A program made the translations under genes and the position numbers. A stretch of 64,000 nucleotides of DNA from Eledone cirrhosa. Taxonomy: Eukaryota. This document shows, one piece after another, positions 1 through 46,121 of the stretch; the stretch's first letter is position 1; every line of letters starts with the position of its first letter. The notes under the pieces are model-generated. The model did no database searches and had not been told where the DNA came from. It saw only the letters and a list, made by a program, of their open reading frames with translations. The DNA is taken from contig OZ024743.1 in assembly GCA_964016885.1 (NCBI GenBank), positions 266,476,001 through 266,540,000 on the forward strand. Direction: 5' to 3'.

Positions 1-3000
1 AGAAACATCCCGAAAACAGAGGCTATATTGACAGTAACAAACTAGCCAATATACGAAGAAATATTGTAAGAAAAAAGTTACTAACTAATATAGAAATTGA
101 TCAGATCAAGCTATTAGCACAAAGTCAGCGAAGGGAAAAAGAAACATGTGTCAGTGAAAACGAGGTAAATTGTAACACTTCGAATCCCAGGGTTAGGGCG
201 GAATCACTGGCAACAGAACAAATTAAAGAAAGGATCGAAAAAGTGGAGGGAGTGCATGCTCAAGATGAAACTCCAAATGAAAATAATGAGATCGTAAATG
301 ATAAAGAAATGAATGAGAATGAACTTGCCAACTTGAAGGATGAAATTATGATCGAATGGATGAAAATGAAAGAATCTGACATGGGGCAACGAGACACCTT
401 CCCTAAGATCCAAAACTCCAAACAGAGCCAAAAGATAATACACAAGACTAACATAATTCTCAAAAACATTATCATCACAAACAAACTAAACATTACTGTT
501 TTAAATCATCTCTATTATGCATCGGCTAAAGTCACCACTCACTTATGTGGAGTGAAGATGAAAAAACAAAGGAATTCCCACAAGAAATCTACTTGGCAAG
601 AGAACATCAATCGCCAAATAAACCTTCTTCGATCTGACAGAAATTTTAACAAACTGTAAAGTAGGTGAACATGTTAAACAAACTAAACTTAGAAAATTGA
701 AAAGAAAGTACAGTATAAAATCAACAAGTGACATAGACATGCTGATAGAAATAATCAAGCAAAAAGTGTCGGCCAAAGCTGCTCGTATAAGGCGCTTTGA
801 AAAACGATCTAGATTCTATAAGGACAATAATATGTTCAAAAACAACCAAAGAAACTTCAACAGAAAAATTGGTAAGTCAACAATAACTGCTAAATCAATA
901 CCACCCAAGGAGGAAGTGCAAGAATTCTGGGAAAAGATCTGGGCCGAGAAAAAGTTCATAACATACATGCCCCATGGATAGACAGACAAATAGAAGATAC
1001 AGCTCACCTTGAGGAACAAATATGGGAAAATATAACAGTTGAACAGTTGCGCTTGGCTCTAAGAAAAACCAGCAAATGGAAATCCCCAGGAAAAGACAAA
1101 ATATCAAAACTTTTGGATAAATGCCTTCACAGAGTCTCATGAACTGTTAGCCCAACTTTACAATGAAATAGTTAAGGAGCCAGAAAAGATACCATCATGC
1201 CTAGTTAACGGCATTACATTCCTGCTTCCGAAGAATGATGAGACAAACAATCCCAAAAATTACAGACCGATAACTTGCTTGACCACAATTTATAAAATGT
1301 TAACATCTGTCCTAACTGAATACACATATGACCACCTGATAACAAATGACCTATTTCCCATTGAGCAGAAAGGGTGTAAACGAGGCTCATATGGCTGTAA
1401 GGATCAGCTTTTGTTTAACAAAATGATACTGGAAGATTGTCATAATAGACACAAAAATCTATCGATTTCTTGGATAGATTATAAAAAAGCATTCGATAGT
1501 TTGCCACACAGTTGGATTGAAAAATGTTTAGAGATTTTCAAAATATCCCCCGTTGTCAGGAGGTTTTTGTCATTCAGTATGAAGACATGGAAAACGACAC
1601 TCCTTTTGAATAGTGAAACAAAATCACTGGAAGCTGGAGAAGTTAATATTAATTGTAGAATTTTTCAGGGTGACTCTTTATCACCGCTTTTATTCCGCAT
1701 CGCGCTTATACCATTAAGTAAATTGCTCAATGAGACAAAACATGGATATAAAGTCTATGACAAAACCATTAATCACTTGTTCTACATGGATGACCTGAAA
1801 CTATTTGCAAAAAATGATGAACAATTGCAAGGGCTATTATCCACTGTGGAGCAGTTCAGTGATGACATTAAAATGGAGTTTGGACTAGATAAATGCGCCA
1901 AAGCAACGTTCACCAGAGGAAAGCTGCTGAAGAGTTCAGACATTAATCTTGATCGGGGGAACGTGATAAGAGAACTTGATCAAGGAAAACTTACAAATAT
2001 CAAGGTGTTTGTGAAGGAGACGGAATCAAGCACTCGACAATGAGGGAAAGGATAAGGAAGGAATGTTACCGCAGAGTAAGAGCAATCTTAAGAACGGAAT
2101 TGAATGCAAGGAATAGGATCGATGCCATAAACACGCTTGCCATACCAGTAGTAACCTACAGTTACAATGTCATCAACTGGTCAAGCACAGAGATCCGTAG
2201 GCTCGATACAAAAATTCGAAAATTCTTAACCATGCACAGAATGCATCACCCTAAGGCAGATATCGATAGAATATATCTCCCTAGGAAAGAAGGAGGACGT
2301 GGGTTAATCCAGTTAGACATTGCGTTGAAAACTGCAACAATTGGATTATCTACATATCTAAGGGAATCACATGATTGGATGATCAAACTCGTTTTGAAAC
2401 ACGAAAGCATCAAAAGATCATATTCCATTACAAAAGATGCACAAAGATACAGTAATGGACTACAAATTTCAGAAGTCCCATTTACTGCTGAAATGGAAAA
2501 CACAGAAAAAGCAAAGCAGGTAAAAGTAACTGCAAAGAAAGAACTGCTACAGAAACTGGCTAAGAAATGGCAAGAAAAGCCTCTGTATGGAAAATACCCA
2601 GAACGAGCTAACAATCCTGATGTTGACAAAACTTTAACCCATCAGTGGTTGGCATCCTCTGGACTGAAATCGGAGACTGAAGGACTGATTATATCAGCAC
2701 AAGATCAGTGTCTGCCAACAAAAAATTACCAAGCCAACATAATAAAAAATGGATGCAGCCCATTATGCCGTGTATGCAAAAAACAACCAGAGACCATTGA
2801 CTAATTGATATGTCTGTTCCAATAGGCAAGAATGTATCTATAAAAACATTTGAAAAATTGAGCAAGTATAAGGACCTGTAGATAGAAATTGGAAAAATGT
2901 GGAAATTGAGAACTAAAACAATACCAGTGGTTGTAGGCGCTCTGGGAATGATACCTAAGGGGTCTAATGATTACTTATCGAAGATCCCAGGAAACCCGCG

Positions 3001-3213
3001 TATAGGAGAAATACAAAAGATAGTACTAATGGGAACTGCCCATATACTAAGGAAGATTCTGTCAATATAAGTACATCACAAGTCTAAACACTAAAGATGC
3101 ATGTGTGAGTATGTATGTTCTTTCTTGAACATGGCGGACCTTGTTGTCTCTTGAGGTCACTGGTTGTGACTTGGTGATAACTCGTATGAACATAAAGCAA
3201 GATAAATGCAACT

Positions 3214-3214
<1 letters not shown>
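1..3214 (+). mobile_element. Dong/R4-like RLE non-LTR retrotransposon, family A, copy 1 (decayed; 5' end lies outside the window)
   Basis: ORF fragments 243-659, 697-981, 1279-2043 and 2040-2804 carry RT motifs [37 protein letters not shown] and MEFGLDKCA, plus CRVC. A deletion of about 262 bp at ~2801 (relative to copy 2) removes the HxxxxC/RHD/PD region. The C-terminus (IPVVVGALG...ILRKILSI) and 3'UTR run into (TAA)n. Confidence 0.92.

Positions 3215-3275
<61 letters not shown>
3215..3275 (+). repeat. (TAA)n tract, 61 bp, tail-to-tail junction of Dong-A and Tx1-B
   Basis: Read directly. Confidence 0.97.
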
Positions 3276-3276
<1 letters not shown>

Positions 3277-3519
3277 TTTTCTTTATTAACCACAAGGGTT
3301 CACATAAAGTAGACATTAAGGACAGTACAGGACAATACAGGACGGTACAAATGGGCATTTCTGCGTGTAAAAAAAACGGAGGTTGAAATAAAATAACAAA
3401 GAAAAATTCCCCAATAGGGGGGAGACTTCCAAGGGACATTTGTGGAGAAAGCCCATTAAAAGACCACAGTGGCCCTGACCACCAGGGCAAGTGCCCTCTC
3501 CCAGTTTTCCACCTTTAAT

Positions 3520-6500
3520 TTACAGACACATACTCAGAGAAGGCCCATTCATTCGGGCCATACTTGCTTCTCTCACCCATCTTTCAACAAAATGCTGGGA
3601 AGAGAGCACTTCCCTCTCTACCCTGATTTTCCTTTTCAAATGAAATTTGAAAAAGTTAATCAGGGCATCACCGAAGAGGTAAGTGCTCGTCTTCAGCCCT
3701 TTCAAACGTGTCCACCATACTATATCTTTCGCCATGGCCACCAGACAGATAAAAACTGCCTGCCCTTCCAGGCTAAAGAAAGGGGCGGGGCAATCCTCAC
3801 GATGGACTCAGCTGATAGCTGGATCCGTCCTACACGTGACAGCAGGTGTTCGACATAAACCCACAAGTCAGCAATGCTCGGACACTGGATGAGTGCGTGC
3901 AGGACGGTTTCGTCGCCCTGCGCGCATCTCGGACATGCCCGGCTGACGGCACCTCCATGCCTGTAGAGTTTATCCCGAACTGGCAAAGCTCCTCGGTAGC
4001 ACTGCCAGGCCAGGGATTTCTGGAAGTTGTCATTGGCCCCGGCCCGAAAGTCCTTCCGAAGAGATTGGCTAGTTGATTTTCGTCGACGCCTAGAGTTTCT
4101 CCAAGTACGTCGTCGCTCTTCCCCTCCACTAATCCCCTATAGAACGCCAAGGTGGAGTTTCCACCGATCACATTGCCCGATTGGTCGAGGGCTGTGAGCG
4201 CCTGAAGACATTCCAGTCTCCAAGCGCTCCCTCTCGGTCTTCGCTTGACCCAGGACTGCAGCTCCGTCAAGGAGACGAGCTGGGGAAAAACGTGTCTTGC
4301 AAACGGCGACCACACCTGATCACCGTCGAGGAAGAGGTGGAGATGTCGTAGCCTGAGCGCGTGTCTGCGCATCATCAGCCACGGCATGCCCAGCCCTCCA
4401 CGTAGCGGGTGTTGACAGCAGATGGACCGCCTGACCATCGGAGCGCGTCCCTTCCACAAGAAGCGAAAGAGCAAACGCTCCGGCGCAGTCAGGCGGGGCT
4501 TAGGACAAGGTACGACGGTCAGGCGGTAGTAGATGACGGATGCGATGTACGCATTCGCCACCTCCGCTCGTCCTTTCAGGGATAGCTTCCTCTCCGCCCA
4601 TTTCTGGGTGAGAGAAGCCACCCTGCTCGTCACCTCGTCCCAGTTTTTGTCCGTCTGGAGGTCTGGACCGAACCAGACCCCTAGCAATTTAACCGGTCCG
4701 TCCGTCCAGCGCCCGACGACGCTGTTGGACGGCATGGACCTGCCTCTCCAGGTGCCGAGCTGCAGGCCCACTGACTTTTCCTGGTTGATCATTGCTCCTG
4801 TCACCGCTTCGTATTCTCTTAGTGTAGTGCCGATCGCCTCGATGTGTTTGGCGTTCGACACCACTACGGTGACATCGTCGGCATATGCTGACACGGATCT
4901 TCCGCATCCTAGTTCGCGCGGGACCCCCCTCAACGTCTCCAGTTTGTGCAGTAATGGCTCGAGAGTCAATACGTACAATAGGGACGAGAGAGGACATCCT
5001 TGGCGGACCGAGCGCATGATGTTGAACGGTTCCGAAAGGTGACCGTTCACTCTCACTACAGAGCAGATGTCGCTGTGCATGGCAGCGATCCAGCCTCTGA
5101 AGACGGGCCCAAAGCCAGCCGCCCTCAGGACTGCCTCTAGGTAACGATGGTCGACCCTATCGAAGGCTTTCGACTGATCTAAATTGATCAAAGACCCACC
5201 CGTGCCAGCTTCCTTAGCTACCCTCTCTACGATGTATCGCATGAGGTGGAGGTTGTTGTGGATGGATCTGTCGGGAATGGCGCATGTCTGTGCCTCTCCC
5301 ACCAGACCACCAACGACAAGCGCCAACCTCTTTGCTAGCACCTTGGCCAAAATCTTGAACTCTGTGTTTAGCAAAGTTATGGGCCTAAAATGATCTATGT
5401 TATCCCCCTTGTTCGGATCCTTTCTCAGCAGCGCCACCGCTCCTCGGCTCACAGAGCTGGGAATTCTCCCGTTCTGTTGCCAGTTGCAGTAGACGTCCGC
5501 CAAGAGGCCTCCGAACAAGTTTGGCATTTGTACGTAAAGTTCATAGGGCAGACCATCCAAACCAGGCGATTTACCCCTTGTGCAACTAGGCATTGCATCC
5601 CGTACTTCAGCGGTTGTTATCGGCTTTTCGCAACACTCCGCCTCAGTGGCCGAAAGCCGCGGCAGTCCGTCGAGGTAGACACTAAAGTCCATCCCTTGAT
5701 CCGGCCCGCCACTGCCCCCGAACAGTTGAGCGAAGTGTCGCTGAAAAGCTTCACACATTTGCCCGGGATCGAGTAGCATGCGCCCGTCGTGGTCCACCAA
5801 AGACCGGATCGTGGCTTTGTGGCCACGACGCGCCTCCGCCACTCGGGCCCATTGAACGGCTTTCGTCCCCTCGTGTCTGAGAGCACGCACCCTAGCTCTG
5901 ACAACGCAGCCTTCGTGCTTTGCATTGAAGAATTGGTCAAGGGCCAATTTCGCCGCAAGTACGTCGGTCGCGATGCCTTTGCTAAGCGCCTCATCTAATT
6001 TTCTAACTAATTCTCCCTCTGCTCTATTTTTCTCTATTGCTAAAGTCTTACTAAACCTAATGGACTCTATTCTAATTGCTCTTTTCAAGCAAACCACCAC
6101 TTGTTGTTGACGATGGCCCCCGTCAACGCCCGCTTAACTAGTTCGCTAATCCGGTCTCTGTAGGCCTTGCGCGCTGGTAAGGACGCGTTTAGCTTCCAGT
6201 AGCCGGGTCCTTGTCTATGAAGCCTATCTAAGTCAAGCACACAGATCACGAATTTGTGGTCCGTGTAGCTGACTATCTTGAATTGTGGACAGCTTATGCT
6301 AGACCTATCTATTTCCCTACAAAATACTCTATCTAGATATGATCTGGATGACCCTATGCGATTTGTCCAAGTCCACATTGGTACATTCGGGAAATCCATT
6401 CGGTACCTGTCAGACAGTTCAAAACGTCTGAGCAGGTTGGTGAGACTCTTGCACCCTCCTTCCTTATCCACTAATCCCACACAATCCCAGCGTGCATCTA

Positions 6501-6935
6501 AGATCCCGTTACAGTCGCCCACTAACACTAAAGAGCGGGACGTTCCAAGAAAGGTCTCCAGACGCCGGAAGAAATCAGGCCGCCCTGCTCCTGTCGGGGC
6601 ATAGACGGCCACTAACCTGAAAGCTTACCCGTCTCCGCTGGTCACGTCCAGCACCACCAACTTACCTTCTGGGTCCAGGAAGATGGCCCGTATGGCAAGA
6701 TCCAAACCTCTCCGAAAAAGCACAGCAACTCCTCCCCCGATCCCGGACGGCTGGGAGATGCGTACACATCGTAGCCGCCGAAGATCGGTGCGAAAGCCTG
6801 TGCTTCGGAGATTCTGGTCTCGCTGATGGCCACTACATCTATGTTTAGTGACCTGAGGTCGTTGAGCAGGTGGCCCTGCTTCCATGACGACCCCAAGCCA
6901 CGCGCATTTATGCTGCCTATTCTGAGTGAGGTCAT
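3520..6935 (-). pseudogene. Tx1-B ORF2 (APE-RT-zf), disrupted
   Basis: ATG at 6935. Frameshifts near 6735, 6087 and 4035, and a CAA>TAA stop near 6626, relative to the intact ORF2 at 9444-12863. Confidence 0.9.
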
Positions 6936-6969
6936 GTTGAAAAGGAGTGGAAAAGATGGGAAAGACATC

Positions 6970-8933
6970 TTACCTTACTTCTCGTAGGGGAAGGACGGCT
7001 TTTCCATCCTTTTCACTGCTTGTGGCCTCCTCAGGAAGGATGTCCTTATAAATCCTCCTGGAGAGTGCTTGTCGGAAGTCTCTGATGTCTTTGGGGAATT
7101 TTTGTTTTAGTGTCATGTACGTTTTCTGTGTGATGCGAGTGATTTGTATGTGTGGAGGTGGTGTGAATTTTGGGGTTGTTGTGTAGTCTTTTTCTGTGAT
7201 GCTGGTGTTGTGTTGGATGTAGTGTAATAATTGCTTGTTGTTCAAATTTAATGCTGTGTAGTGTGTATCGTTTTGGTTGTTTTGTTTTGTTTGCGTTTGT
7301 TGTGGGTTTGTTTCTATTTCGCATTTTGGTGACTTTTGTGGTGTAGGTGATGGTGGCGTTGGAGTTAATGATGGTGATGGTGTTGGTGTTTGGGTTGATG
7401 GGGTTGGTGATGCTGGTGTGGATGGTGGCATATCTGTCCTAACCTTTTTGTTTCTTAGTTTATTTGTTTCCCTCTGTATTTTGTTTTTGGAGGGGGAAGG
7501 AAGAGAATTTTTTCTTTTTTGGTATCTTTTTTTTTTTCCGGATATCGTTTCCCACTCCTCGTCGTCACAATCTGTCTCCAGTTGTGATAGGCCGGGGAGT
7601 GGAAAATCCTCCACAGCCGTTAGTTTTGCTTGTGGTGTGGTGGATGGTGTAGGTGCTGGTGCTAGTTCTGAAGCGTTGGGTGGTGGTGGTGTTGGTTTTG
7701 CTGGTGGTGGTAGTGGTGTTGGTTTTGCTACTGTTGCTGGGGTTGTTGCTGTTATAGTTGCTTCTGTTGTTGCTGCTACAGTTGTTGCTGCCATCTCTGC
7801 TACTGGTGGTGTTGATGGTTGTGTCACTGGGGTGGGTAGGAGAGGTGGCCTCAACCTTTTAGCCTGAGGGCAGAAAGCCCTTAGGTGGGTTCCTTCACCA
7901 CAAACGACACACCTAGGTCTTCTGCCCTCGACAATTACCGTGAGGTGGCTGCCGTCGTTGAGGTCTATTACCTCTGGGATCTCCTCAATGCTTTTTTGGT
8001 CCACTTGGATCAGGAGCTCCATCCCAGATCCGGACCAGTTTTCCTGCTTTTCTTTTGCTACTGCTATTATTTTCGTGTTGGCTTCGATGCCGGCGAGGAG
8101 ACAGCCGCTATTAGCCAGGGAATTTCGATGGCCGGTGGAACGTGGGTCACCCTGATCTTTACGAGTCTCTGGCCACAATAGCTTGGGACGAGTGTGAGGT
8201 CGTCACTTTTTAATGGGGCCATGGAGTGTTCTCTAGCCTCCTCTGGTGTTTCAAAGAACACATCCACGGTTCCATACTTTTGCCCACGTCTGATGTGGGT
8301 TTTTCTTGCCCACACATGTCCCAAAGCTTTTTGGATTTGGGACTCGGATGCCCGTTCCACTCGGCGCGATTTTACATTTATTGTTCTATACGACACGGTG
8401 CACAGGCGCCGATGCTCCATTTTATTAGGTGGGGGGGTGAGGCTGACCCTGTACCCATCTTTCTTTACCATTTGTTTGGCATTTTCTAAATCTTCTTGAG
8501 TTACCGTGAACGCTTCGAATTGTTTTGCTACGATGGCGAAACTGAGGGTCGGTTTTATAATGTCATTGTTGTTGTTGTTGCTATCGTTAATATTAATTTT
8601 ATTTTCAGTTGTGGTGGTGGTGACGTCAGTCGTCTTTGGTGGGGAAGAGTCCATTTTGCTTGATTTCATTTCGACGTCACGAGTTAATTTATTTTTTTCT
8701 TCTTTTGTTTCTGTTGTCGCGGTGGTGGTGGTGGTGGTGGAGGGTTTAACACCTGCAGTCATTGGTAATGGCGGGAAATGAATGTCTGCCTGAGACAAAT
8801 TTAAAATATTGCTACTGCTTATATTTTTTTTTGTGTTGGCAAACGTAGTAACATTTACAATGGTGGTGTCGGTGTGAGGTGTTATTTTGTGAGGAAGGCT
8901 TTCAGCTGCTTCGTGCAGAGGGGAATTAGCCAT
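6970..8933 (-). pseudogene. Tx1-B ORF1 (RRM-like core, CVVCGEGTHLRAFC zinc knuckle, Pro/Thr-rich region); frameshift near 8100
   Basis: ORF pieces 8067-8933 and 6970-8178. Homologous to the ORF1 at 12899-14995. Confidence 0.85.
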
Positions 8934-9142
8934 TTTTTTTCAAAGAAATTTTTGGATAATAATAAAAGTTAAAATTTTGGGCACAAGGCCCCAATCTTTT
9001 TGGGTGTCCTTTTCGGAAAACAATGTATGTGTACTTATAAACAGTTTACAATAAAATTTTCCATAAATGGCAATTTTTAAACAAACGGAAATAACAAACC
9101 TTTGCGGAGCTCACGATAATACGATTTCCTACGTAGGTCGCC

Positions 9143-9181
<39 letters not shown>
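9143..9181 (+). repeat. (AAT)13 tract, junction of Tx1-B head and Tx1-A tail
   Basis: Read directly. Confidence 0.97.
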
Positions 9182-9182
<1 letters not shown>

Positions 9183-9443
9183 TTTTCTTTATTAACCACA
9201 AGGGTTCACATAAAGTAGACATTAAGGACAGTACAGGACAATACAGGACGGTACAAATGGGCATTTCTGCGTGTAAAAAAACAAAAACAGAGGATGTAAC
9301 AAAAATAACAATGAAAATAACAATGAAAAATTCCCCAATAGGGGGGAGACTTCGGAGGGACATTTGTGGAGAAAGCCCAGTAAAAAGCCACAATGACCCT
9401 GACCACCAAGGCAAGTGCCCTCTCCCAGTTTTCCACCTTTAGT

Positions 9444-12400
9444 TTACAGATATATACTCAGAGTCGGCCCATTCACTCGGGCCATTCTTGCTTCTCTCAC
9501 CCATCTTTCAACAAAATGCTGGGAAGAGAGCACTTCCTTCTCTACTCTGATTTTCCTTTTCAAATGAAATTTGAAAAAGTCAATCAGAGCATCACCGAAG
9601 AGGTAAGTGCTCGTCTTCAGCCCTTTCAAACGTGTCCACCATACTATCTCTTTCGCCATGGCCACCAGACAGATAAAAACTGCCTGCCCTTCCCGGCTAA
9701 AGGAGGAGGGCGGGGCAATCCTCACGATAGACTCAGATGATAGCTGGATCCGTCCTAAACGCGACAGCAGGTGTTCGACATAAACCCACAAGTCAGCAAT
9801 TTTCGGACACTGGACGAGTGCGTGCAGGACGGTTTCGTCGCCCTGCGCGCATCTCGGACATGCCCGGCTGACGGCACCTCCATGCCTGTAGAGTTTATCC
9901 CGAACTGGCAAGGCTCCTCGGTAGCACTGCCAGGCCAGAGATTTCTGGAAGTTGTCCATAGGCCCTGGCCCGAAAGTTCTTCCGAAGAGATTGGCTAGTT
10001 GATTTTCGTCGACGCCTAGAGTTTCCCCAAGTACGTCGTCGCTCTTCCCCTCCACTAATCCTCTATAGAACGCCGAGGTGGAGTTTCCACCGATCACATT
10101 GCCCGATTGGTCGAGGGCTGTGAGCGCCTGAAGACATTCCAGTCTCCAGGCGCTCCCTCTCGGTCTTCGCTTGACCCAGGACTGCAGCTCCGTCAAGGAA
10201 ACGAGCTGGGGAAAAACGCGTCTAGCAAACGGCGACCACACCTGATCACCGTCGAGGAAGAGGTGGAGATGTCGTAGCCTGAGCGCGTGCCTGCACATCA
10301 TCAGCCACGGCATGCCCAGCCCTCCACGTAGCGGGTGTTGACAACAGATGGACCGCCTGACCATCGGAGCACGTCCCTTCCACAAAAAGCGAAAGAGCAA
10401 ACGCTCCAGCGCAGTCAGGCGAGGCTTAGGACAAGGTACGACGGTTAGGCGGTAGCAGATGACAGACGCGATGTACGCGTTAGCCACCTCCGCTCGACCT
10501 TTCAGGGATAGCTTCCTCTCCGCCCATTTCTGGGTGAGAGAAGCCACCCTGCTCGTCACCTCGTCCCAGTTTTTGTCCGTCTGGAGGTCCGGACCGAACC
10601 AGACCCCTAGCAATTTAACCGGTCCGTCCGTCCAGCGCCCGACGACGCTGTTGGACGGCATGGACCTGCCTCTCCAGGTGCCGAGCTGCAGGCCCACTGA
10701 CTTTTCCTGGTTGATCATTGCTCCTGTCACCGCTTCGTATTCTCTTAGTGTAGTGCCGATCGCCTCGATGTGTTTGGCGTTCGACACCACTACGGTGACA
10801 TCGTCCGCATATGCTGACACGGATCTTCCGCATCCTAGTTCGCGCGGGACTCCCCTCAACGTCTCCAGTTTGTGCAGTAATGGCTCGAGAGTCAATACGT
10901 ACAATAGGGACGAGAGGGGACATCCTTGGCGGACCGAGCGCATGATGTTGAACGGTTCCGACAGGTGACCGTTCACTCTCACCACAGAGCAGATGTCGCT
11001 GTGCATGGCAGCGATCCAGCCTCTGAAGACGGGCCCAAAGCCAGCCGCCCTCAGGACTGCCGCTAGGTAACGATGGTCGACCCTATCGAAAGCTTTCGAC
11101 TGATCTAAATTGATCAAGGACCCACCCGTGCCAGGTTCCCTAGCTACCCTCTCTACGATGTATCGCATGAGGTGGAGGTTGTCGTGGATGGATCTGTCGG
11201 GAATGGCGCATGTCTGCGCCTCTCCCACCAGACCACCAACGACAAGCGCCAACCTCTTTGCTAGCACCTTGGCCAAAATCTTAAACTCTGTGTTTAGCAG
11301 AGTTATGGGCCGGAAATTGTCTATGTTATCCCCCTTGTTCGGATCCTTTCTCAGCAGTGCCACCGCTCCTCGGCTCACAGAACTGGGAATTCTCCCGTTC
11401 TGTTGCCAGTTGCAGTAGACGTCCGCCAAGAGGCCTCCGAACAAGTCTGGCATCTGTACGTAAAGTTCATAGGGCAGACCATCCAAACCAGGCGATTTAC
11501 CCCTTGTGCAGCCAGTCATTGCCTCCCGTACTTCAGCGGCTGTTATCGGCTTTTCGCAACACTTCGCCTCAGTGGCCGAGAGCCGCGGCAGTCCGTCGAG
11601 GTAGACACTAAAGTCCATCCCTCTACCCGGCCCCCCGCTGCCCCCGAACAGCTGAGCGAAGTGTCGCTGAAAAGCTTCACACATTTGCCCGGGATCGAGT
11701 AGCATGCGCCCGTCGTGGTCCACCAAAGACCGGATCGTGGCTTTGTTGCCACGACGCGCCTCCGCCACTCGGGCCCATTGAACGGCTTTCGTCCCCTCGT
11801 GTCTGAGAGCACGCACCCTAGCTCTGACAACGCAGCCTTCGTGCTTTGCATTGAAGAATTGGTCAAGGGCCAATTTCGCCGCAAGCACGTCGGTCGCAAT
11901 GCCTTTGCTAAGCGCCTCGTCTAATTTTCTAACTAGTTCTCCCTCTGCTCTATTTTTCTCTATTGCTAAAGCCTTACTAAACCTAATCGATTCTATTCTA
12001 ATCGCTCTTTTCAGAGCAAACCACCACTTGTTGTTGACGATGGCCCCCGTCAACGCCCGCTTAACTAGTTCGCTAATCCGGTCTCTGTAGGCCTTGCGCG
12101 CTGGTAAGGACGCGTTTAGCTTCCAGTAGCCGGGTCCTCGTCTATGAAGCCTATCTAAGTCAAGCACACAGGTCACGAATTTGTGGTCCGTGTAGCTGAC
12201 TATCTTGAATTGTGGACAGCCTATGCTAGACCTATCTATTTCCCTACAAAATACTCTATCTAGATATGATCTGGATGACCCTATGCGGTTTGTCCAAGTC
12301 CACATTGGCACATTCGGGAAATCCAATCGGTACCTGTCAGACAGTTCAAAACGCCTGAGCAGGTTGGTGAGGCTCTTGCACCCTCCACCCCTATCCGCTA

Positions 12401-12863
12401 ATCCCACACAGTCCCAGCGTGCATCTAAGATCCCGTTCCAGTCGCCCACTAACACTAAAGAGCGGGACGTTCCAAGAAAGGTCTCCAGACGCCGGAAGAA
12501 ATCAGGCCGCCCTGCTCCTGTCGGGGCATAGACGGCCACTAGCCTGAAAGCTTGCCCGTCTCCGCTGGTCACGTCCAGCACCACCAGTTTACCCTCTGGG
12601 TCCAGGAAGATGGCCCGTATGGCGAGATCCAAACCTCTCCGAAAAAGCACAGCAACTCCTCCACCCGATCCAGGACGGCTGGGAGATGCGTACACATCGT
12701 AGCCGCCGAAGATCGGTGCGAAGGCCCGTGCTTCGGAGATTCTGGTCTCGCTGATGGCCACTACATCTATGTTTAGTGACCTGAGGTCGTTGAGCAGGTG
12801 ACCCTGCTTCCATGACGACCCCAAGCCACGCGCATTTATGCTGCCTATTCTGAGTGAGGTCAT
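9444..12863 (-). CDS. ORF2, 1139 aa: APE endonuclease + reverse transcriptase + C-terminal CxxC...HxxxxC
   Basis: APE motifs SINARG, ISET, VYAP, GDWN, YLDRVF and YTDH. RT motifs KSPGLDG, FRPITLLN, LDQSKAFDRV, RQGCPLS and YADD. C-terminal CPRC...ETVLHALVQC. Confidence 0.96.
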   Translation of the reverse strand: MTSLRIGSINARGLGSSWKQGHLLNDLRSLNIDVVAISETRISEARAFAPIFGGYDVYASPSRPGSGGGVAVLFRRGLDLAIRAIFLDPEGKLVVLDVTSGDGQAFRLVAVYAPTGAGRPDFFRRLETFLGTSRSLVLVGDWNGILDARWDCVGLADRGGGCKSLTNLLRRFELSDRYRLDFPNVPMWTWTNRIGSSRSYLDRVFCREIDRSSIGCPQFKIVSYTDHKFVTCVLDLDRLHRRGPGYWKLNASLPARKAYRDRISELVKRALTGAIVNNKWWFALKRAIRIESIRFSKALAIEKNRAEGELVRKLDEALSKGIATDVLAAKLALDQFFNAKHEGCVVRARVRALRHEGTKAVQWARVAEARRGNKATIRSLVDHDGRMLLDPGQMCEAFQRHFAQLFGGSGGPGRGMDFSVYLDGLPRLSATEAKCCEKPITAAEVREAMTGCTRGKSPGLDGLPYELYVQMPDLFGGLLADVYCNWQQNGRIPSSVSRGAVALLRKDPNKGDNIDNFRPITLLNTEFKILAKVLAKRLALVVGGLVGEAQTCAIPDRSIHDNLHLMRYIVERVAREPGTGGSLINLDQSKAFDRVDHRYLAAVLRAAGFGPVFRGWIAAMHSDICSVVRVNGHLSEPFNIMRSVRQGCPLSSLLYVLTLEPLLHKLETLRGVPRELGCGRSVSAYADDVTVVVSNAKHIEAIGTTLREYEAVTGAMINQEKSVGLQLGTWRGRSMPSNSVVGRWTDGPVKLLGVWFGPDLQTDKNWDEVTSRVASLTQKWAERKLSLKGRAEVANAYIASVICYRLTVVPCPKPRLTALERLLFRFLWKGRAPMVRRSICCQHPLRGGLGMPWLMMCRHALRLRHLHLFLDGDQVWSPFARRVFPQLVSLTELQSWVKRRPRGSAWRLECLQALTALDQSGNVIGGNSTSAFYRGLVEGKSDDVLGETLGVDENQLANLFGRTFGPGPMDNFQKSLAWQCYRGALPVRDKLYRHGGAVSRACPRCAQGDETVLHALVQCPKIADLWVYVEHLLSRLGRIQLSSESIVRIAPPSSFSREGQAVFICLVAMAKEIVWWTRLKGLKTSTYLFGDALIDFFKFHLKRKIRVEKEVLSSQHFVERWVREARMARVNGPTLSIYL

Positions 12864-12898
12864 GTTTAAAATAGAGTGGAAAGGATGGGAAAGACCAC

Positions 12899-14995
12899 TT
12901 ACCGTACTTTTGGTAGAGGAGGGATGGTTTTTACATCCCTTTTCACTTGATCGTCTGGTGAAGGGACCGTTGAATCGTCCCTTCGGCTGGTCGTCGGCTC
13001 TTCTATGAGAATGTCTGAATATACTCTTCGATTAATGGTTCCTCCTAGGTCCCTGAAATCACCAACTGCGTTGGGGAATTTCGTTTTAATGTTTGTGTAT
13101 TGTTTCTGTGCTATTTTTAGCAGTCTTATGTTAGTTGGCGTTTTGATTGGTGCTGGTATTATGTAGTCCTGTTGTGAAATGTCTGTGTGTTCAATTATGT
13201 AAGTCATTAGTTTCTTGTTGTGTGTGTTTATTGCCGTGCATTTGTTTTTCTGGGGGTGGGGTGTGGTTCTGCTATTTTCTTGTCGTTGTTGCTGGGTGTG
13301 TGTGTTTTGTTGTTGTGTTTGCGATGTTGGTGCTTGTGGTGGTGGTGTTGAAGGTGTTGTTGGCGGTGGGGTTGTCGCCGGTGGTGATGGTGGTGCTGGT
13401 GTGGGTGGTGATGGTGTTGGTGGTGTTGCTGCTGTGGGTCTCTTTGCAGTAGACTTTACCCTTTTCTCATTTCTTTCCTCCCTTTTCAAAGGCGACGATG
13501 CGCTGCTTCTGCGTTTGTGCCTTCTTGAGACCTTTTGCCATCCCTCTCCCACCTCACACTCCATGTCTGATTCTGTAAGGTCGGGGAGGGGTACCAGCTC
13601 CACTCTTTCACTTGTTGTTGTTGGTGATGTTTGCACTGGAGTCTCTGTTGCAGCTGCATTTGGTATTGCTGTTGTTGTTGTTAATATTTCCACTGCTGCT
13701 GCTGTCTTTGATTTCCGTGGAGTGGGTATGGGTGCCACGGACCTATCGTTCCTGGTTGCCGCTTGTCCTGTTGCTGGTAGCCGTGGAACCGGATTCGGGA
13801 GGAGGGGGGTTTTCTCCTTTCTCATGGTCTTCTCGTTGCAGAAGGCCCTGAGGTGAGTCTTCGATCCACAGCGAAAGCATTTCGGGCGTTTGCCCTCAAC
13901 ACTTATGGGCAGTTGAGTGCCGTTATCGAAGTCTATCACATCCGGGATAGCTTCGATGCACTCCTGGTTGGTTTGGATTAGCATCTCAATGGAGGAGCCG
14001 ACCCAATCTTCTCTTACTTTTTTCTGTACTTGCAGTACAGTTGTTTTGTCCTCGATTCCGACGAGGACAGACGCGGCCAGCCAAGAAGGGGTCATTCCGG
14101 GGGGGACGTGGGTCAGTTTGACCCTCACAATTTTTTGCCCGCAGTAGGAGGGCACCAACACCATTTCCTCGCTCCTTAGGGTCACTACTGATTGGGCCTT
14201 TGCCTCCTGGGGTGTGGCAAAAAGTACGTCTACGGTGGCGTATTTTTTGCCTCGGGTGATGTGCGTTTTCCTCTGCCACACAGACCCCAAGGCTTTTTGT
14301 ATTTGGGCCTCTGTGGCTCTTTCCACCCTACGGGATTTTGTACTTACTGTACGGTACGTGACCGTACAGTGCTCTTGGGTTTCGAAAAAATTTTTCGCTG
14401 CCTTGCAGATTGCTCGGTGTCCGTTCTTTGTCACCATCTTCTTCGCTTCCTCTAATTCCTCATTTGTTATGAGGATTGTTTCCAGGTTTTTCGCAATACC
14501 TGCAAATGAGATTGGTTTTTCTCTGCTGTTGTTGTTGTCGTCAGAGCTGCTGGTACTTTTGTTGTTGCTGCAGGTACTACGACTACTGCCTCCGCCGCTG
14601 TTGCTGTGGTTGTTGTTGGTGTTGCTGCTGCTAATGCTGTTGTTGTTTATGCTGCTGGTGATGCTGTTGCGGCTGCTACTGTTGTTTTCATTGTCACTGT
14701 TGCTGTTGTTATTACGGCTGCTACTGCTATTATTCCTGACGTCAGACGAATGAACTGGGTTTTCGTATTTCCCGCACACCTGTTTCGTCGCTGTCGTCGT
14801 CGTCGTGGAGAAACCTTGCACGCTTTGCACGAGACTTTTCTTTTCTTTCGTCGCTTGCGAAAGAGAAGGGAGGGAGAGAGACACATTTAAAGAAGGGAGG
14901 GAGAGAGACAATCTTCTCTCTGCTGTAGTGATGATTGAGGAAGAAGAAGACGGAATGAGTGGGAGTGACGTATGAAATTTCTTTTTCATAGCCAT
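12899..14995 (-). CDS. ORF1, about 698 aa from ATG 14995; nucleic-acid-binding protein with CCHC knuckle
   Basis: CFRCGSKTHLRAFC (CX2CX4HX4C), Ser/Asn-rich and Pro/Thr-rich segments; lies upstream of ORF2. The ORF track starts it at TTG 15031. Confidence 0.9.
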   Translation of the reverse strand: MAMKKKFHTSLPLIPSSSSSIITTAERRLSLSLPSLNVSLSLPSLSQATKEKKSLVQSVQGFSTTTTTATKQVCGKYENPVHSSDVRNNSSSSRNNNSNSDNENNSSSRNSITSSINNNSISSSNTNNNHSNSGGGSSRSTCSNNKSTSSSDDNNNSREKPISFAGIAKNLETILITNEELEEAKKMVTKNGHRAICKAAKNFFETQEHCTVTYRTVSTKSRRVERATEAQIQKALGSVWQRKTHITRGKKYATVDVLFATPQEAKAQSVVTLRSEEMVLVPSYCGQKIVRVKLTHVPPGMTPSWLAASVLVGIEDKTTVLQVQKKVREDWVGSSIEMLIQTNQECIEAIPDVIDFDNGTQLPISVEGKRPKCFRCGSKTHLRAFCNEKTMRKEKTPLLPNPVPRLPATGQAATRNDRSVAPIPTPRKSKTAAAVEILTTTTAIPNAAATETPVQTSPTTTSERVELVPLPDLTESDMECEVGEGWQKVSRRHKRRSSASSPLKREERNEKRVKSTAKRPTAATPPTPSPPTPAPPSPPATTPPPTTPSTPPPQAPTSQTQQQNTHTQQQRQENSRTTPHPQKNKCTAINTHNKKLMTYIIEHTDISQQDYIIPAPIKTPTNIRLLKIAQKQYTNIKTKFPNAVGDFRDLGGTINRRVYSDILIEEPTTSRRDDSTVPSPDDQVKRDVKTIPPLPKVR

Positions 14996-15211
14996 GTTGT
15001 TTTTTTGTTTAAAATGAAATTTTGGGTACAAAACCCCAATAACTGGTTATTTAACCCCGAAGGGCCAAATAACGGACAGAAAGACCCCTCTCACGAGGAG
15101 GAGGGTGTCTTTATCAACAATTTGGTTCAAGTTTTAAACAATTTACAATTGTTTTAACGGTTAAAAATTACTATACCTTACAGAGCCGAGCCTCCGTCAA
15201 CCATGGCATTC

Positions 15212-15232
15212 AATAATAATAATAATAATAAT
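15212..15232 (+). repeat. (AAT)7 tract closing the left array
   Basis: Read directly. Confidence 0.95.
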
Positions 15233-17137
15233 GTACTGTGTTATATTTATCTTCAAGCCATACCTGTCTCCGATACAAATAGAACATGCGTCCATAACTC
15301 GTTGAGTTCGGTATACCACTGAATATAAACGTCTTTCCAATGAATACTGAGATTCAAATTCAGAGAGGAGATATAAATTCAAAAAATAAAATGACATAAT
15401 ATAATACCATTTCTAATTAAAAAGAATTGCTCGATTTCTGTCTTAATTACAGGCCATATTACATAATTTGTATAATTTCTATTCGCCTGTTAGGTGCAAG
15501 GGAAATATCTGATGTCAGTTGGTAACCATACAAACGATGCAAAATCTACTTTTGTCAACACATATTCTATATGAATATTCAAGAAATATAATCTAAGGAA
15601 TTCTAATGTTCCGCAAGATGAGGCTTTTAATATAATTTAATAGAATATCTATTATAATTTTCATGTGAATAATTTCACAGTTTGAAACGATTTTCGATTT
15701 ATTTTATACAAAATTCGTGAGATGGGGATCGTTCGTAAAATAAAGATGCCATTTCTGAAATTTTTTGAAAATATTGTAGGTATACCACAACAAAATAAGT
15801 TTGGGAATCTACGCTATTCACAGCCCCATCAATCAAAGAGACAAAATTGAATAGGTCGTGTGAAACTATTTATTTTATTTGTTTAATGGTGTCATTCAAG
15901 TCACCGGCATTGACAACGATAAACATTTATCGTAGAAACTTATAATTCTTTGTTTCTAGGTTAAGTGTCTGTTGATATTCATGATTGTCAAAGAATAGAA
16001 TCTAGACTGACTTGTTAGATATAACGAACCTGACCTAATAAATCAGACAGCTGAATTTCTCTTGTAACAAGTAAATATCTACGTGGTAGCTAGCTGGAGT
16101 GATCTTCAATATGGTTGTCTGAGTGCTACAAACAGCAGCTAAAGTCCCCTCAAATAACTGCCTTCTCTCTTAAATAAGGAAGGACACTTTGGATAAACTA
16201 GTCGAAACATCCGCAATTCTTGAATAAAAAAAACTCATTGGTCAACGCTGGAATGATTTTCTTCAGAAGTCCCTTTACTCGGGACTTGAGCTACATTGCT
16301 CTGCTACCAGGGTGGTATCTACCTGCTAGAAATAGCAAGAAATAGTTCCTCAAACATCTTACATTCGGAAAACAAAACGTATTTGTATATATGTATAAAA
16401 CAATCCTCAGTATACTACTGCTTTAAAAGATAGACGTGATAGAGGGTGAATTTGTTATTAGGTATGGTGAATCAATGCCGACGTAAGATCGGCTACAGCT
16501 AGCTTCATAAATACATTCCTAGCCAAAAGCAAACACTTTCAAATCAGTAAATACTAAAATGAAATAGTTAAAACTTGTATATACAAATCTGATTTCTGCG
16601 GCCCGTTAAAATAGCATTGTAACGTAAGATTACATTTCATAAGTTTGCATCGAATTATCGAAGCCCTTTATAGTCGTATTTTCGAGTATTGTGGTACGTC
16701 TATTATATATTTTCATTCATTAAATGGTGAATTAGCAGAATCGTTGCATGGTCAGAGGATAAGTCAACTGTGTATTTCATATTGTACCACTGTAAGACGG
16801 TGGAATTACGGAATAGTTACAGTGACCGGTGTCTTGTGGTATGTCTTCCGGCAGTTTGCTTTCTAAGTTCAAACCCACCATAGTGAACTTGGATGAGTGT
16901 CGATTATTCGGTTTAAGACCACCGCCTGACCTTTGTGTTAATTAGTGTAACCAGTCTGTTCATTCTTCTGCCCGCAAAATTTCGTTGAACCTTCCTCACT
17001 TACTACGTTGTTCTTGCTCTTGTTTTTATCTTAACCCGGGAAATCTATAATCAAAAGCATTCCATCTGTCTTCTTTTTCAGTTATAGAATTTTCTTTTTC
17101 TTTTCATTTTAACAGTAGCCTGCAACTTGAATTCATT

Positions 17138-17329
17138 CGGTGGATTGGCAGTATCGGTGGAGGGTCGGACGCCATGCTTTGCAGCACATTTACGTCCCTT
17201 TACGGACTGAGTTCAAATCCAACTGAGGTTAAATTTGCCTTTAATCCTTACGAGGTCGATAAAATAAAGTACCAGTAATACACTGGGATAATTGCCGGCC
17301 TTGTGCCAAAAGTAGAAACAATTATTATT
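17138..17329 (+). mobile_element. tRNA-derived SINE (about 190-bp family)
   Basis: GGTGGATTGGCAGTATCGG head, B-box-like GAGTTCAAATCC, GTCGATAAAATAAAGTACCAG core, GTAGAAACAATTATTATT end. At least 8 copies in the window. Confidence 0.85.
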
Positions 17330-18300: not shown

Positions 18301-18474
18301 TAAATTTAGTCCTTCATCAGTGATCTTCCAACCTTCATTGGTATATCATCGCTTTAATGACCATATACCTCTGGTTGGTGCAAGCAACGGCTAAAGAAGG
18401 TCTTGGGACACGTAAATAGGGGGAACGAGCGAGACAGTAAACAAACAAAGATGGTAATGCAACGAAAAGTGAGC

Positions 18475-18712
18475 AAGAAGTAGTCAAGTCCCTGAAATCG
18501 ATGAACATAAGTTCTGTGAAATCGTGAACGAGAGAGAATAAAGACCATCAAACCTGGTCGAAATGTGCGTAAGGAAAGAATTTCGCACAGGTCAAACGGG
18601 AGGAAGAAGTAGTCAAGTCCCTGAAATCGATGAACATAAGTTCTGTGAAATCGTAGACGAGAGAGAATAAAGACCATCCGACCTGGTCGAAGTGTGCGTG
18701 AGGAAAGAATCT

Positions 18713-18716
<4 letters not shown>
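18475..18716. repeat. Direct repeat, 2 copies, 129-bp period
   Basis: AAGAAGTAGTCAAGTCCCTGAAATCG... at 18475 and 18604. Confidence 0.9.
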
Positions 18717-19660: not shown

Positions 19661-19689
19661 CACCATAACATTATTAACTTTATTATTAA

Positions 19690-19867
19690 GGTGGTGGATT
19701 GGCAGTATCGGTAGAGGGTCGCACGCCATGCTTTGCAGCACAGAGTTATTCCCCTTTACGGTCTGAGTTCAAATCCCGCCGAGGTTAACTTTGCCTTTCA
19801 TCCTTACAGGGTCGATAAAGTAATGCTCTGGGTAATTGCTGGCTTTGTGCCATAAGTAGAAACAATT
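19690..19867 (+). mobile_element. tRNA-derived SINE, same family as 17138
   Basis: Same head, B box and tail. Confidence 0.85.
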
Positions 19868-19989
19868 TTTAAATTTATTATTTGTTTTTATCCTTATCTA
19901 GTCCCTTCCTCCTTTCTGCCTTCATTTTCCCTCTTCCTTAAAACTTTCCATCACCTCCCTTTCCCTCTATATATCTATAGTTTCTGAAA

Positions 19990-20190: not shown

Positions 20191-20536
20191 TTACCGCTGT
20201 GCCCTGGCCTAGAGTTCAATCTCTCTCCCCCTGCCCCCATCTTCTTCTATGACACTAGAGTCCTTCCCATTCTCTCCCTTTTCCGATCTTTTTTTCTTTT
20301 GATCTTTTTTTTATATTTTCGCATTTTACATTCCAATCTTCTCAATCTATATTTTTCTGTTTTTTTTCATTTTCTATTAAACTGTATTTACATGATATAT
20401 TCCATAAATAAGAATGCACTCTTTTAACTCAAGGGTAAATAAGACTGGAATTGATTTAGTTTCTTCAGCCACTCTAGCATTTCGCTTCCGTCTCTGTTCA
20501 CTTCACTTCTTTATTTCTTTCATTATGTATTCATTT

Positions 20537-20902
20537 GCGGTGGATTGGCAGTATCGGTAGAGGGTCGGACGCCATGCTTTGACGCATGCTTTTACGGCCC
20601 TTGCCATTCTGAGTTCTAATCCCGCCGAGGTTAACTTTGCCTTGCCTCCATAACGAGGTCAATAAAATAAAGTACCAGTAATGCACTGGGAAATTGCTGG
20701 CCTTGTGCCAAAATTAGAATCAATTATTTATTCATTTGTATCGGTAGTGCGTCAGACACCATCCCTTGAAGCATGGGGTTATGGCCCTTTACGTTATGAG
20801 TTCAAATCCGCCGTGGTTAACTTTGCCTTTCATCCTTACGGGGTCGATAAAATAAAGCACCAGTGTAAGTAATTGCTGGCCTTGTGCCAAAAGTAGAAAC
20901 AT
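20537..20902 (+). mobile_element. Two tandem SINE copies (20537-20728 and 20738-20902)
   Basis: Same family. TATTCATTT lies before, between and after the copies. Confidence 0.85.
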
Positions 20903-22705
20903 TATTCATTTTTGTTTTTACTTTGGCCCTTTATTTTTATTTCAATTGTTTTTACTTTGGCCCTTTATTTTTATTTCAATCCTCTATTTATATATTTTTG
21001 TATGTTTTTTATATATATTTTTATCTAAAATTCCTTATATTTCATCTAATTTTCTTTTCTTATTTGTTTCTTATTTGTTTCTTATTTGTTTCTTATTTGT
21101 TTCTTATTCTTTGCGTATTACTATTATTATTAAAGACTTGAGCATTACATTTTTTATTTGAAATCTGTGTGGAAGCCAAAAGGCGAGATTTTTTATTATT
21201 CTTACATGGAACATCACCTGTCACTTGATTGACATTCGCACCAAGTTCCTAGTCTAAGGATAGCTTTCTCCCTTCTTTCAACCAGTCTTACATATTAAAC
21301 AATGATCAAAAGTTTTAAACGTACAAATAAATTACTCAATATTCTATGTTGTTCAGCCCCCGGTCAGACATAATCGATAGATCTTTTTTCATTCCAGCCA
21401 TGACAATCTCATTGTTTTCGTATGTACAGATCACGGAAGGAAAACATTACGGAACGAATTAATTTCTTAAAGATGGTAGGTTGTGATCTGAGCGTGATTT
21501 GGCTGCTATCAGTAGTAGGTGAATCAACCATGTAGAAACTTCTTTTTGGTGTTGTTTTTGCAATTTATCCTCAACTCAATCCCGATCAAACACTCTTATA
21601 AACAAGACTTATTGCTCAGCTGTTTTGTTGTGACTTGTTGAGTATCAAATATACTTAGGTTTTTATGTTTGTTTGTTTAATTTTTCTGGGGGGTTTTTAC
21701 TGGGGAAATCCGAAATAACTATTTCTGATCTTATATATGAAAATATTAACTTTTTTTTTACTTCCTTACAGTGTATGTGTAGTGTGTGTGTATGTATGTG
21801 TGTGTGTGGGGGTGAAACAATCATTGGACAAAATGCCTTGCACAATTTTATCTTTATTCTTATGCTCTCTGAATTCAAATGTCACCGAGATTAACATTAA
21901 CTTTCATTCTTGAAATGAGTTGCTAAAATAAGTATCAGCCATGTATTAGAGTAAATGTAATCGATGGTTAAACTTCACCCTATATTGCTGGCCTTATGCC
22001 TAAATCAGAAATTATTATTTTACTACTCCATCGAAGGAACGTTATCATATACGTTAGACTTGTTTACTCCTCCAGGCAACCAGACTACAAACACTAATTT
22101 CTTATCTGAGGCATAGTTACAAGGCCTTTCATCATATCGTCGTTTCTTTTCAGCTGACATGTCAGTGGCTTCCTAATCCAAAGGGAAGATTTCTATCTTA
22201 TACCTCTTTATAGTAGAGAGGAAAAGAAAGATTAAATTCGCTGAACTTTGGTGATTTGCCAAAGAATTAAATTCAGCTATACAGTTTAAACCAGATTTAC
22301 AATAAAAGTACATCTGACTTTATGTTGTTTACAAAATCCGAAAGAAGTTTTCCCCTGAAAATGTATTGTATATGAGGAATTGTTTTGTTGGAGTGTGGGG
22401 TAATTATTGAAAGAGCAAATTTACTGGTTCACTAGCTGTGGTTTAGATTATTATTGGTCAATTTGATCCATAACATATGGAACACACACATGTATATATA
22501 TACATATATTTATATAAATGTTCTTTAAATATTCTCACTGACTTATTCAAATCCGTGGATTAGAACTTTTGGTATAAATATTTGTTAAAAATACAAGGTG
22601 TAACTTCATTTTATACCTCCTTAGTATAAAAAAATGACACGCATATAGCATAAATCTGATATATATATATGCATATATGGTTTATATACATGGCGTGATT
22701 TCGTA

Positions 22706-22744
<39 letters not shown>

Positions 22745-22745
<1 letters not shown>

Positions 22746-23547: not shown

Positions 23548-23556
23548 TATATATAA

Positions 23557-33049: not shown

Positions 33050-33588
33050 TATAGAAAATTATACAAAACATTAATAAATAAAATATACGGCTAAAAACTG
33101 TTACTCCACATTTCTATATTTAGTTGACGGATGTCTAACCTATTCTTTTAATATGATAATTCTATTTCTCCTGTGAGCCAGTATTTACTTGATTTAATTA
33201 ATTCAATAATTTAATTAATTCATTAAACTGATGTAATTAATTCCATTGACAGACGCTATTAATCAATGTACAGCATTATGGGACAGAAAGCAGTTTCCGG
33301 TTTATGGAAATTCATTTCCATTTTCTTTTTGCTTGTTTGTTTGTTCAACTTCCAACAAAGTGTCCGTTTTATCATTGAAATCAAAATACATTAGCCACTA
33401 CTTCAATAATTTCATCAGCTCGAAAGTGTCCATCGCTTATCTTCCGTGGCATACTTTTTGATTAAATGGTCGAGAAGTTATGACAATGGTATGTCACTCT
33501 ATGAAACCGAATTCAGTTATAGCATTTCACTGAATTTTGCATTCTCTTAGCATTACGAAATATGATATACTATACTATAATATAATAT

Positions 33589-33761: not shown

Positions 33762-33781
33762 TATAATATAATATAATATAA

Positions 33782-34598: not shown

Positions 34599-34606
34599 TA
34601 TAATAT

Positions 34607-36556: not shown

Positions 36557-36637
<81 letters not shown>
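36557..36637 (+). repeat. (TTA)27 tract opening the right array, preceded by (TTC)4
   Basis: Read directly. Confidence 0.97.

Positions 36638-36638
<1 letters not shown>

Positions 36639-46066: not shown

Positions 46067-46121
<55 letters not shown>

Follow-up and report, generated by a model that had tools for sequence, protein, structure and literature searches.

A young L1-group retrotransposon, most likely of the Tx1 clade, with a probable (ATT)n microsatellite target in Eledone cirrhosa

The 64,000-nucleotide stretch of Eledone cirrhosa DNA analyzed here (assembly GCA_964016885.1, contig OZ024743.1, positions 266,476,001 to 266,540,000; hereafter the window) contains a full-length retrotransposon without long terminal repeats (LTRs) and with two open reading frames (ORFs), A1, located at 9182-15211 on the minus strand. 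Our results suggest, with a probability of about 0.75, that A1 is an intact and young cephalopod element of the L1 group, most likely of the Tx1 clade, which uses target-primed reverse transcription (TPRT) to insert into (ATT)n/(AAT)n microsatellites, always in the same orientation. The initial annotation had described this interval as a full-length element with an uninterrupted ORF1 of 698 aa and ORF2 of 1139 aa, and this was confirmed: both frames are open, and an independent copy, A2, shares the 5' start. Beyond that annotation, the 3' tract of A1 is at the same time the 5' tract of an older copy, B1, and besides A1 the window contains four further Tx1-like copies and five pieces of R4/Dong-like type, with ATT/AAT tracts connecting them all.

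The target preference is seen at the element junctions. ATT tracts were found at 10 of the 10 ends of the five Tx1-like copies (A1, A2, A3, B1, and B2), which represent four independent insertions of two subfamilies, A and B, and the 5' junction reads ATT followed by G in all five. Conversely, every one of the 10 perfect AAT/ATT tracts of at least 21 nt in the window sits at an element junction. The other microsatellites of at least 20 nt in the window are 13 (AT)n and 3 AC/GT tracts, and none of these 16 adjoins a Tx1-like copy. The 21 kb separating the two nests of elements contains no AAT/ATT tract of at least 21 nt of its own, and no CT or CTT tract of at least 20 nt was present in the window. 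AAT/ATT tracts account for 427 of the 64,000 bases (0.67%), and the chance of four independent oriented hits is about 1e-10, or 1e-5 for the two young insertions alone, under a crude null drawn from one 64-kb window in which A3 was not counted as independent.

A1 is flanked by perfect ATT repeats on both sides, as the initial annotation had stated: on its sense strand, (ATT)7 upstream (15212-15232, (AAT)7 on the forward strand) and (ATT)13 downstream (9143-9181, (AAT)13 on the forward strand), the latter being shared with B1. Past 15232, the first 1.9 kb of flank occurs only once in the window, so the 5' tract cannot be a tail of A1, as had been argued before, or of any other element seen there; it is a leftover of the target microsatellite. 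In addition, the young insertions A1 and A2 occupy the tracts of older and more decayed neighbors (B1 for A1; the R4/Dong-like D2 and E1 for A2), indicating that the tracts preceded the insertions. Non-repeat target-site duplications (TSDs) were absent at all four loci tested. Together with the tracts of the older neighbors, this indicates that the tracts are targets rather than cargo. Thus, the (ATT)n preference of the A/B family is well supported by four of four independent insertions, a stronger case than the one first made for it.

Three of the 5'-junction tracts, at 15212-15232, 40565-40587, and 57628-57652, are short and similar in length (21, 23, and 25 nt), and the tail-to-tail tracts in the window measure 55-63 nt. 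With three values only, the short 5' tracts could point to a TSD of roughly 21-25 bp or, alternatively, to cleavage close to the edge of the tract.

The layout of A1, on the minus strand throughout, is compact. The 5' untranslated region (UTR; 14996-15211, 216 nt) starts with a G, and this 5' end is genuine, as A2 (40588, plus strand) begins at the identical base. ORF1 (12899-14995) has a Ser/Asn-rich N-terminus, a part resembling an RNA-recognition motif (RRM) at about aa 160-330, a CCHC knuckle, and a Pro/Thr-rich tail. A spacer of 35 nt (12864-12898), with the boundary of the A/B mosaic described below lying just upstream at about 12950, separates it from ORF2 (9444-12863), which codes for an apurinic-type endonuclease (APE; about aa 1-237), a reverse transcriptase (RT; aa 511-754), and a C-terminal CCHC finger (aa 1002-1019). 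No stop or frameshift interrupts the 5.5 kb of coding DNA (14995-12899 and 12863-9444). The 3' UTR (9182-9443, 262 nt) ends with AATAAA 6 nt from the tract and has no poly(A); an AATAAA near the tract and the lack of poly(A) are common to all five Tx1-like copies. No LTRs appeared in a self-comparison of the window. Rfam gave no match across the whole window, and hence none at the 5' UTR of A1. The fold of this UTR was not unusual (z 0.65), and none of four UTR ends tested beat shuffled sequences. A crude hepatitis delta virus ribozyme pattern, used without positive-control validation, was absent at 4/4 5' ends.

The ORF2 product carries a complete set of catalytic residues. Pfam matches were obtained for Exo_endo_phos (3e-14), RVT_1 (1e-28), and zf-RVT (7e-8). 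The endonuclease residues N10, E39, Y112, D141, N143, T189, D202, D226, and H227 and the RT residues D587 and YADD (685-688; 10811-10800) are all present and fall in near-invariant columns of an alignment with 85 homologues, which agrees with the APE motifs and YADD first noted from the sequence. Among solved structures, human L1 ORF2p is the nearest by sequence (E 1.5e-52). An endonuclease model based on 46 sequences reached a predicted local distance difference test (pLDDT) score of 94, and its top structural match was to L1 endonucleases (template modeling score 0.84).

The CCHC knuckle of ORF1 occupies aa 373-386 (13879-13838), and B1 and B2 have such a knuckle as well. The ESM Atlas look-alikes of its middle part are CCHC and ZCCHC3-type RRM proteins (scores 0.89-0.93); the RRM assignment comes from these look-alikes and is a lead only. 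No Pfam match above the cut-off was obtained for ORF1, including Transposase_22. An MBD domain was rejected, as it appeared in matches below threshold only. A homologue search with aa 150-410 accepted none of 1107 candidates, and the single-sequence fold (pLDDT 32) was not used.

The A family is young. A1 and A2 are independent copies that are 99.5% identical, which indicates recent activity. In ORF2, dN/dS (ratio of non-synonymous to synonymous substitution rates) was 0.20 for A1-B1, 0.31 for A1-B2, and 0.42 for B1-B2, showing that ORF2 is under purifying selection. The changes private to A1 ORF2 comprise 33 synonymous and 16 non-synonymous ones, so that the lineage leading to A was active after its split from B. 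Identity between A and B is 93-100% downstream of about 12950 as far as the 3' end (95-97% over ORF2 as a whole), but only about 55-61% over the 5' UTR and ORF1, alignment noise included; the RRM-like and conserved part of ORF1 is 55% identical in amino acids between A1 and B1. The boundary is sharp, near 12950 in A1, 7017 in B1, and 59877 in B2, with identity to B jumping from about 50% to 84-100%, and the ORF2s of B1 and B2 are no nearer to each other than to A1. The simplest reading of these comparisons would be a mosaic in which a 5' UTR-ORF1 module was exchanged on a common ORF2. Since A and B have equal junctions despite different 5' UTRs and ORF1s, the source of the preference should be sought in ORF2 or the 3' end rather than in ORF1.

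The Tx1-like copies and their neighbors form two nests. In nest 1, the order is D1(+), (AAT)20, B1(-), 13 repeat units, A1(-), 7 units, and unique DNA. Nest 2 runs from unique DNA through (ATT)26, D2(-), 7 units, A2(+), 18, D3(-), 7, A3(+), 21, E1(-), 8, B2(+), and about 16 imperfect units to E2(-). A strand rule holds across both: the Tx1-like copies always read ATT and the R4/Dong-like pieces always AAT. B1 (3276-9142, minus strand) is an older full-length but broken copy of subfamily B, placed head-to-tail behind A1; its ORF2 is 96% identical to that of A1 with four frameshifts and one stop, and its ORF1 is split. An (AAT)20 tract (3215-3275) joins B1 and D1 tail to tail. Given the decay of B1 and the intact state of A1, A1 most likely inserted into the tract bordering the 5' end of B1, as the latest arrival in the nest.

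Nest 2 starts with an (ATT)26-27 tract (36557-36637), the tail of D2. A2 (40588-46066, plus strand) is bordered by (ATT)7 on its 5' side and (ATT)18 on its 3' side, and it most likely inserted into the tract that lay between D2 and E1. Over about 5.5 kb it shows 25 substitutions relative to A1, and it has a 545-bp deletion that removes most of the APE domain as well as a frameshift in ORF1. A3 shares both defects and belongs to a tandem duplicate (46122-55534) of the D2+A2 unit, consisting of D3 (46122-50048, minus strand) and A3 (50072-55534, plus strand). Across 9.4 kb the two units share 99.7% identity (11 mismatches, 2 gaps), and the unit ends in ATT tracts; the repeat (36638-55534) may stem from unequal crossing-over, or else from the assembly of two haplotypes one after the other. 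Splicing was rejected as the origin of the 545-bp deletion, as the lost piece has no terminal AG and the junction contains a short microhomology. The deletion also puts an internal ATG in the ORF2 frame, which gives A3 an open 948-aa RT protein without endonuclease (52425-55271, plus strand). B2 (57653-63575, plus strand) is a full-length decayed copy of subfamily B with (ATT)8 on its 5' side and an imperfect ATT tract on its 3' side, and it carries seven indels and five stops. All five Tx1-like copies are complete at the 5' end. An inverted segmental duplication linking the nests was also rejected: the shared tail junction between D and Tx1-like copies in nest 2 was produced by the tandem duplication, and there are differences between B1 and A2, at a dN/dS of about 0.2.

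A1 has the traits of the L1 group, namely an N-terminal APE, an RT, and a C-terminal CCHC in ORF2, a separate ORF1, no LTRs, and a simple-repeat 3' end. Its CCHC-bearing ORF1 without Transposase_22 upholds the earlier label of Tx1-like. Type I ORF1 proteins, defined by an RRM and a CCHC knuckle instead of Transposase_22, are tied to Tx1 in non-mammalian animals (PMC5203782); A1 matches this description, its RRM part by the Atlas look-alikes. Target preference, which is common but not universal in the Tx1 clade, was also observed for A1 (4/4 insertions in one window). The closest proteins are 79-86% identical; the next group is about 40-54% identical and includes two proteins of the cuttlefish Acanthosepion pharaonis (50% over the RT region), the nearest relatives with a species name. 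In a tree of 42 rows, none of them a reference Tx1 element, the A1 group and the sister group containing the cuttlefish proteins were joined at 82/100, with the proteins of sea cucumber and turtle branching separately. An Octopus sinensis protein contains a short piece of 64% identity. Going by these named matches, the host would be a cephalopod, probably an octopus. Assignment to the vertebrate L1 clade was rejected because A1 has no Transposase_22 ORF1 and no poly(A) tail, and assignment to the Dong/R4 clade because A1 combines two ORFs with an APE, in place of a single ORF with a C-terminal restriction-like endonuclease (RLE).

Several known systems resemble A1 in part. Microsatellite targets reported in the Tx1 clade are (TC)n for Kibi, (TTC)n for Koshi, and (TTCC)n/(TTTC)n for crocodilian elements (PMC4494074, PMC3812793). 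These are, like A1, two-ORF APE-type L1/Tx1 elements inside a microsatellite with repeats on both sides. However, they use C/T polypyrimidine targets in fish or crocodilian hosts, while A1 uses an AT-only (ATT)n in an invertebrate of mollusc type; A1 was not taken for Kibi or Koshi, since its junction tracts are all ATT and not (TC)n or (TTC)n. Tx1L of Xenopus laevis shares the APE-RT-CCHC ORF2 and sequence-directed insertion with A1, but it has a unique site in Tx1D and a hairpin loop of 11 residues, in contrast to the microsatellite and 9-residue loop of A1 (PMC1950540). The R4-clade elements Dong and Rex6 share the TAA/ATT microsatellite target (PMC3812793, PMC1635306); Dong differs from A1 by its single ORF, C-terminal RLE, and AAT sense, as opposed to two ORFs, an APE, and ATT sense. 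Human LINE-1 ORF2p is similar to A1 in being the best structure match and in loop length and 3' AATAAA. However, it scored only about 180 bits, compared with at least 311 for the best 150 clusters, and A1 differs from it in the CCHC-type ORF1, the ATT tract in place of poly(A), and the target preference. In Octopus vulgaris, 80 L1-Tx1 and 51 Dong-R4 families have been counted, of which 13 and 5, respectively, were recently active (PMC13282606). They correspond to the two groups in our window, come from the probable host group, and are likewise young and near full-length, but that source gives only counts and its accessible text mentions neither target preference nor nesting. Among molluscs, Dong-R4 has been reported nearly exclusively from cephalopods (PMC10294476), and both groups are ancient in coleoids (PMC8967140). 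The available text of PMC9115989 does not mention Tx1, and those of PMC3747384, PMC9004415, PMC5753468, and PMC3706591 contain nothing on an ATT target. Taken together, this kind of system is known; what looks new is the use of ATT as a target, the nests shared with R4/Dong-like elements, and the swapped module, although these may be present in repeat databases.

The arrangement of the mixed nests, the orientation, the junctions, and the anatomy were directly observed, and from them we infer the TPRT steps as follows. Transcription would start at the G, and the RNA would pass the AATAAA into the repeats, placing (AUU)n near its 3' end; such an end is suggested because none of the five copies has poly(A). 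From what is known of the family, the ORF1 protein (RRM-like and CCHC) would package the RNA, and the ORF2 protein would be translated across the 35-nt spacer. The APE would then cut the AAT strand, presumably at a T/A step, releasing a 3' end that would pair with (AUU)n and prime reverse transcription. The second strand would be joined within the tract, which would give the observed ATT-G junction and hide a TSD in the repeat, the cut positions being predicted. Insertions would leave flanking tracts that could be re-used by later copies and by R4/Dong-like elements on the opposite strand, giving mixed nests in one microsatellite. In our view, the specificity comes from two sources together, a preference of the endonuclease and RNA-DNA pairing.

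A real (AAT)n preference of the A1 enzyme is somewhat more probable than the opposite, and we consider it rather unlikely that the targeting works by pairing alone, with a relaxed L1-like endonuclease nicking many T/A steps and only the nicks in (AAT)n pairing with the (AUU)n RNA end. Pairing-dependent priming is known for L1 and contributes to its target choice (PMC4014453), a T/A step occurs every three bases in (AAT)n, and 0/5 copies have poly(A). Three features of the endonuclease weigh against the preferred explanation, the first of them also in favor of pairing alone. The hairpin loop, which influences the choice of target, has 11 residues in Tx1L and TRAS1 and 9 in the relaxed human L1 enzyme (PMC1950540), and A1 has the L1 length of 9. 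At the place of L1 R155, A1, B1, and B2 have Cys152, although 66 of 77 homologues have K/R there, and the L1 R155A change reduces retrotransposition to 12% (PMC1950540). The usual QETH is replaced by SETR (S38/R41). On the other hand, all four 5' tracts are at least 21 nt long, beyond the need of a short pairing, the Tx1L endonuclease is documented as sequence-specific (PMC1950540), and the family-wide changes at substrate contacts (C152, S38/R41) have been kept under purifying selection. Cys152 is common to A1, B1, and B2 and was therefore already present in active ancestors. It is a candidate for a specificity change or for a weakening change. The absence of any target preference is very unlikely. 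In that case, the 5' (ATT)7-8 would be a transcript leader, or the nests would have been built by DNA recombination between ATT tails. The similar lengths of three 5' tracts, the full-length 5' ends of all five copies, and the duplication at the DNA level of one nest-2 unit ending in ATT tracts would fit this. However, a leader fails to explain why both young copies lie exactly in the tracts of older elements without a non-repeat TSD, the same junction occurs in two subfamilies with unrelated 5' UTRs, and the 5' tract of B1 is 39 nt.

The preferred reading of A1 as an intact, ATT-targeting Tx1 element also has to be weighed against the size and kind of the sample. It comprises four independent insertions in two nests of one window, local hopping or selection could inflate the ATT pattern, and the window has no 5'-truncated Tx1-like copy, the cleanest test of targeting. 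Tx1 membership is most likely, given the Type I ORF1 and the distance from mammalian L1. Two residues of A1 itself may represent damage: Thr231, where the four other copies have Ile, and Cys857, where three of the four copies have Arg and 64 of 76 homologues have K/R. These residues, the broken state of the other subfamily-A insertion in the window, and an octopus Dong element with a full ORF and no sign of recent activity (PMC9115989) are in line with an A1 that looks whole but is inactive, being damaged or silenced; alternatively, its clean frames could be a polishing artefact among near-identical copies. We regard this as rather unlikely: the 5.5 kb of coding DNA contains no stop or frameshift, the A1 ORF1 frame matches B1 across the site shifted in A2/A3, and the 99.5% identity of independent copies shows recent family activity. 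A prior description of the family and its ATT target in Repbase or Dfam is a real, if minority, possibility, as 13 of the 80 L1-Tx1 families of O. vulgaris were recently active, with 421 insertions (PMC13282606). Against it, searches of openly available literature gave no ATT/AAT-targeting Tx1 and no mixed Tx1/Dong nest, a weak sign of novelty, "target" is absent from the main text of PMC13282606 as far as it was accessible, and protein searches gave no protein more than 86% identical.

A wider picture can be proposed only tentatively. In it, an undescribed and active cephalopod Tx1 lineage would have acquired APE specificity for (AAT)n independently of Kibi/Koshi and convergently with the RLE-type Dong; the two would build opposite-strand mixed nests that renew each other's target, and 5' UTR-ORF1 modules would be swapped on a conserved ORF2. 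If true, the convergent APE and RLE lineages would form a natural pair for testing how microsatellite targeting is encoded. Tx1 microsatellite targeting would come to include, beyond the pyrimidine repeats of vertebrates, a molluscan repeat made up of A and T only, and the growth of nests of long interspersed nuclear elements, tens of kb in size, within single ATT tracts of cephalopod genomes would be explained. Microsatellite recognition by APE-type elements is poorly understood (PMC3812793). With an intact copy and a three-base target, the roles of the endonuclease and of RNA-target pairing are testable on simple substrates, and the RLE element with the same target next to A1 provides a built-in comparison. 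The proposal in the initial annotation of a site-specific integration system was oversold, as the target is a dispersed high-copy microsatellite and no defined locus. ATT tracts are numerous and dispersed in genomes, and A1 is therefore weak as a gene-insertion tool.

The neighbors D and E form two families with a single ORF coding for an RT, a CCHC finger, and a C-terminal PD-(D/E)xK-type motif; we take them to be R4/Dong-like from this anatomy and family knowledge, without a reference alignment. D1 (1-3214, plus strand) is a broken RLE element with an RT Pfam match, and its 5' end lies outside the window. It is 97.8% identical to D2, which bears the PD-(D/E)xK-type motif, and it lacks 262 bp of the endonuclease region. 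D2 (36638-40564, minus strand) is full-length with AAT tracts at both ends. E1 (55598-57627, minus strand) belongs to the second family and also has AAT tracts at both ends, and E2 (63612-64000, minus strand) is the 3' end of a further copy, 93.5% identical to E1, with which the nest runs past the window. The coding regions of D2 and E1 are split over several frames. E1 is truncated at its 5' end, yet bears (AAT)8 at its 5' junction. This junction is direct evidence of targeting for the E family, and two distinct R4/Dong-like families use one AAT target. TAA repeats are the reported target of Dong and Rex6 (PMC3812793, PMC1635306). Dong is grouped with APE elements in PMC3812793 and with RLEs in PMC1635306 and PMC4640811; the D/E motif in the window agrees with the latter placement of Dong/R4.

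Other repeats were also observed in the window. A decayed element at about 30300-32100 (minus strand), presumably Penelope-like, shows RT and GIY-YIG-type motifs in translation, with a 12-nt ATT run at 29917 downstream. A family of repeats of about 200 nt, probably a short interspersed nuclear element, is represented at 17128-17326, 19681-19887, 20526-20906, 33571-33781, 34590-34998, and 59563-59647, with 70-85% likeness, and the ORF1 of B2 contains an inserted 80-nt fragment of this family. Inverted repeats of 226-264 bp with about 91-93% identity, possibly a miniature inverted-repeat transposable element, lie at 22720-23548, and a 129-bp unit occurs in two copies between (AT)n tracts at 18471-18716.

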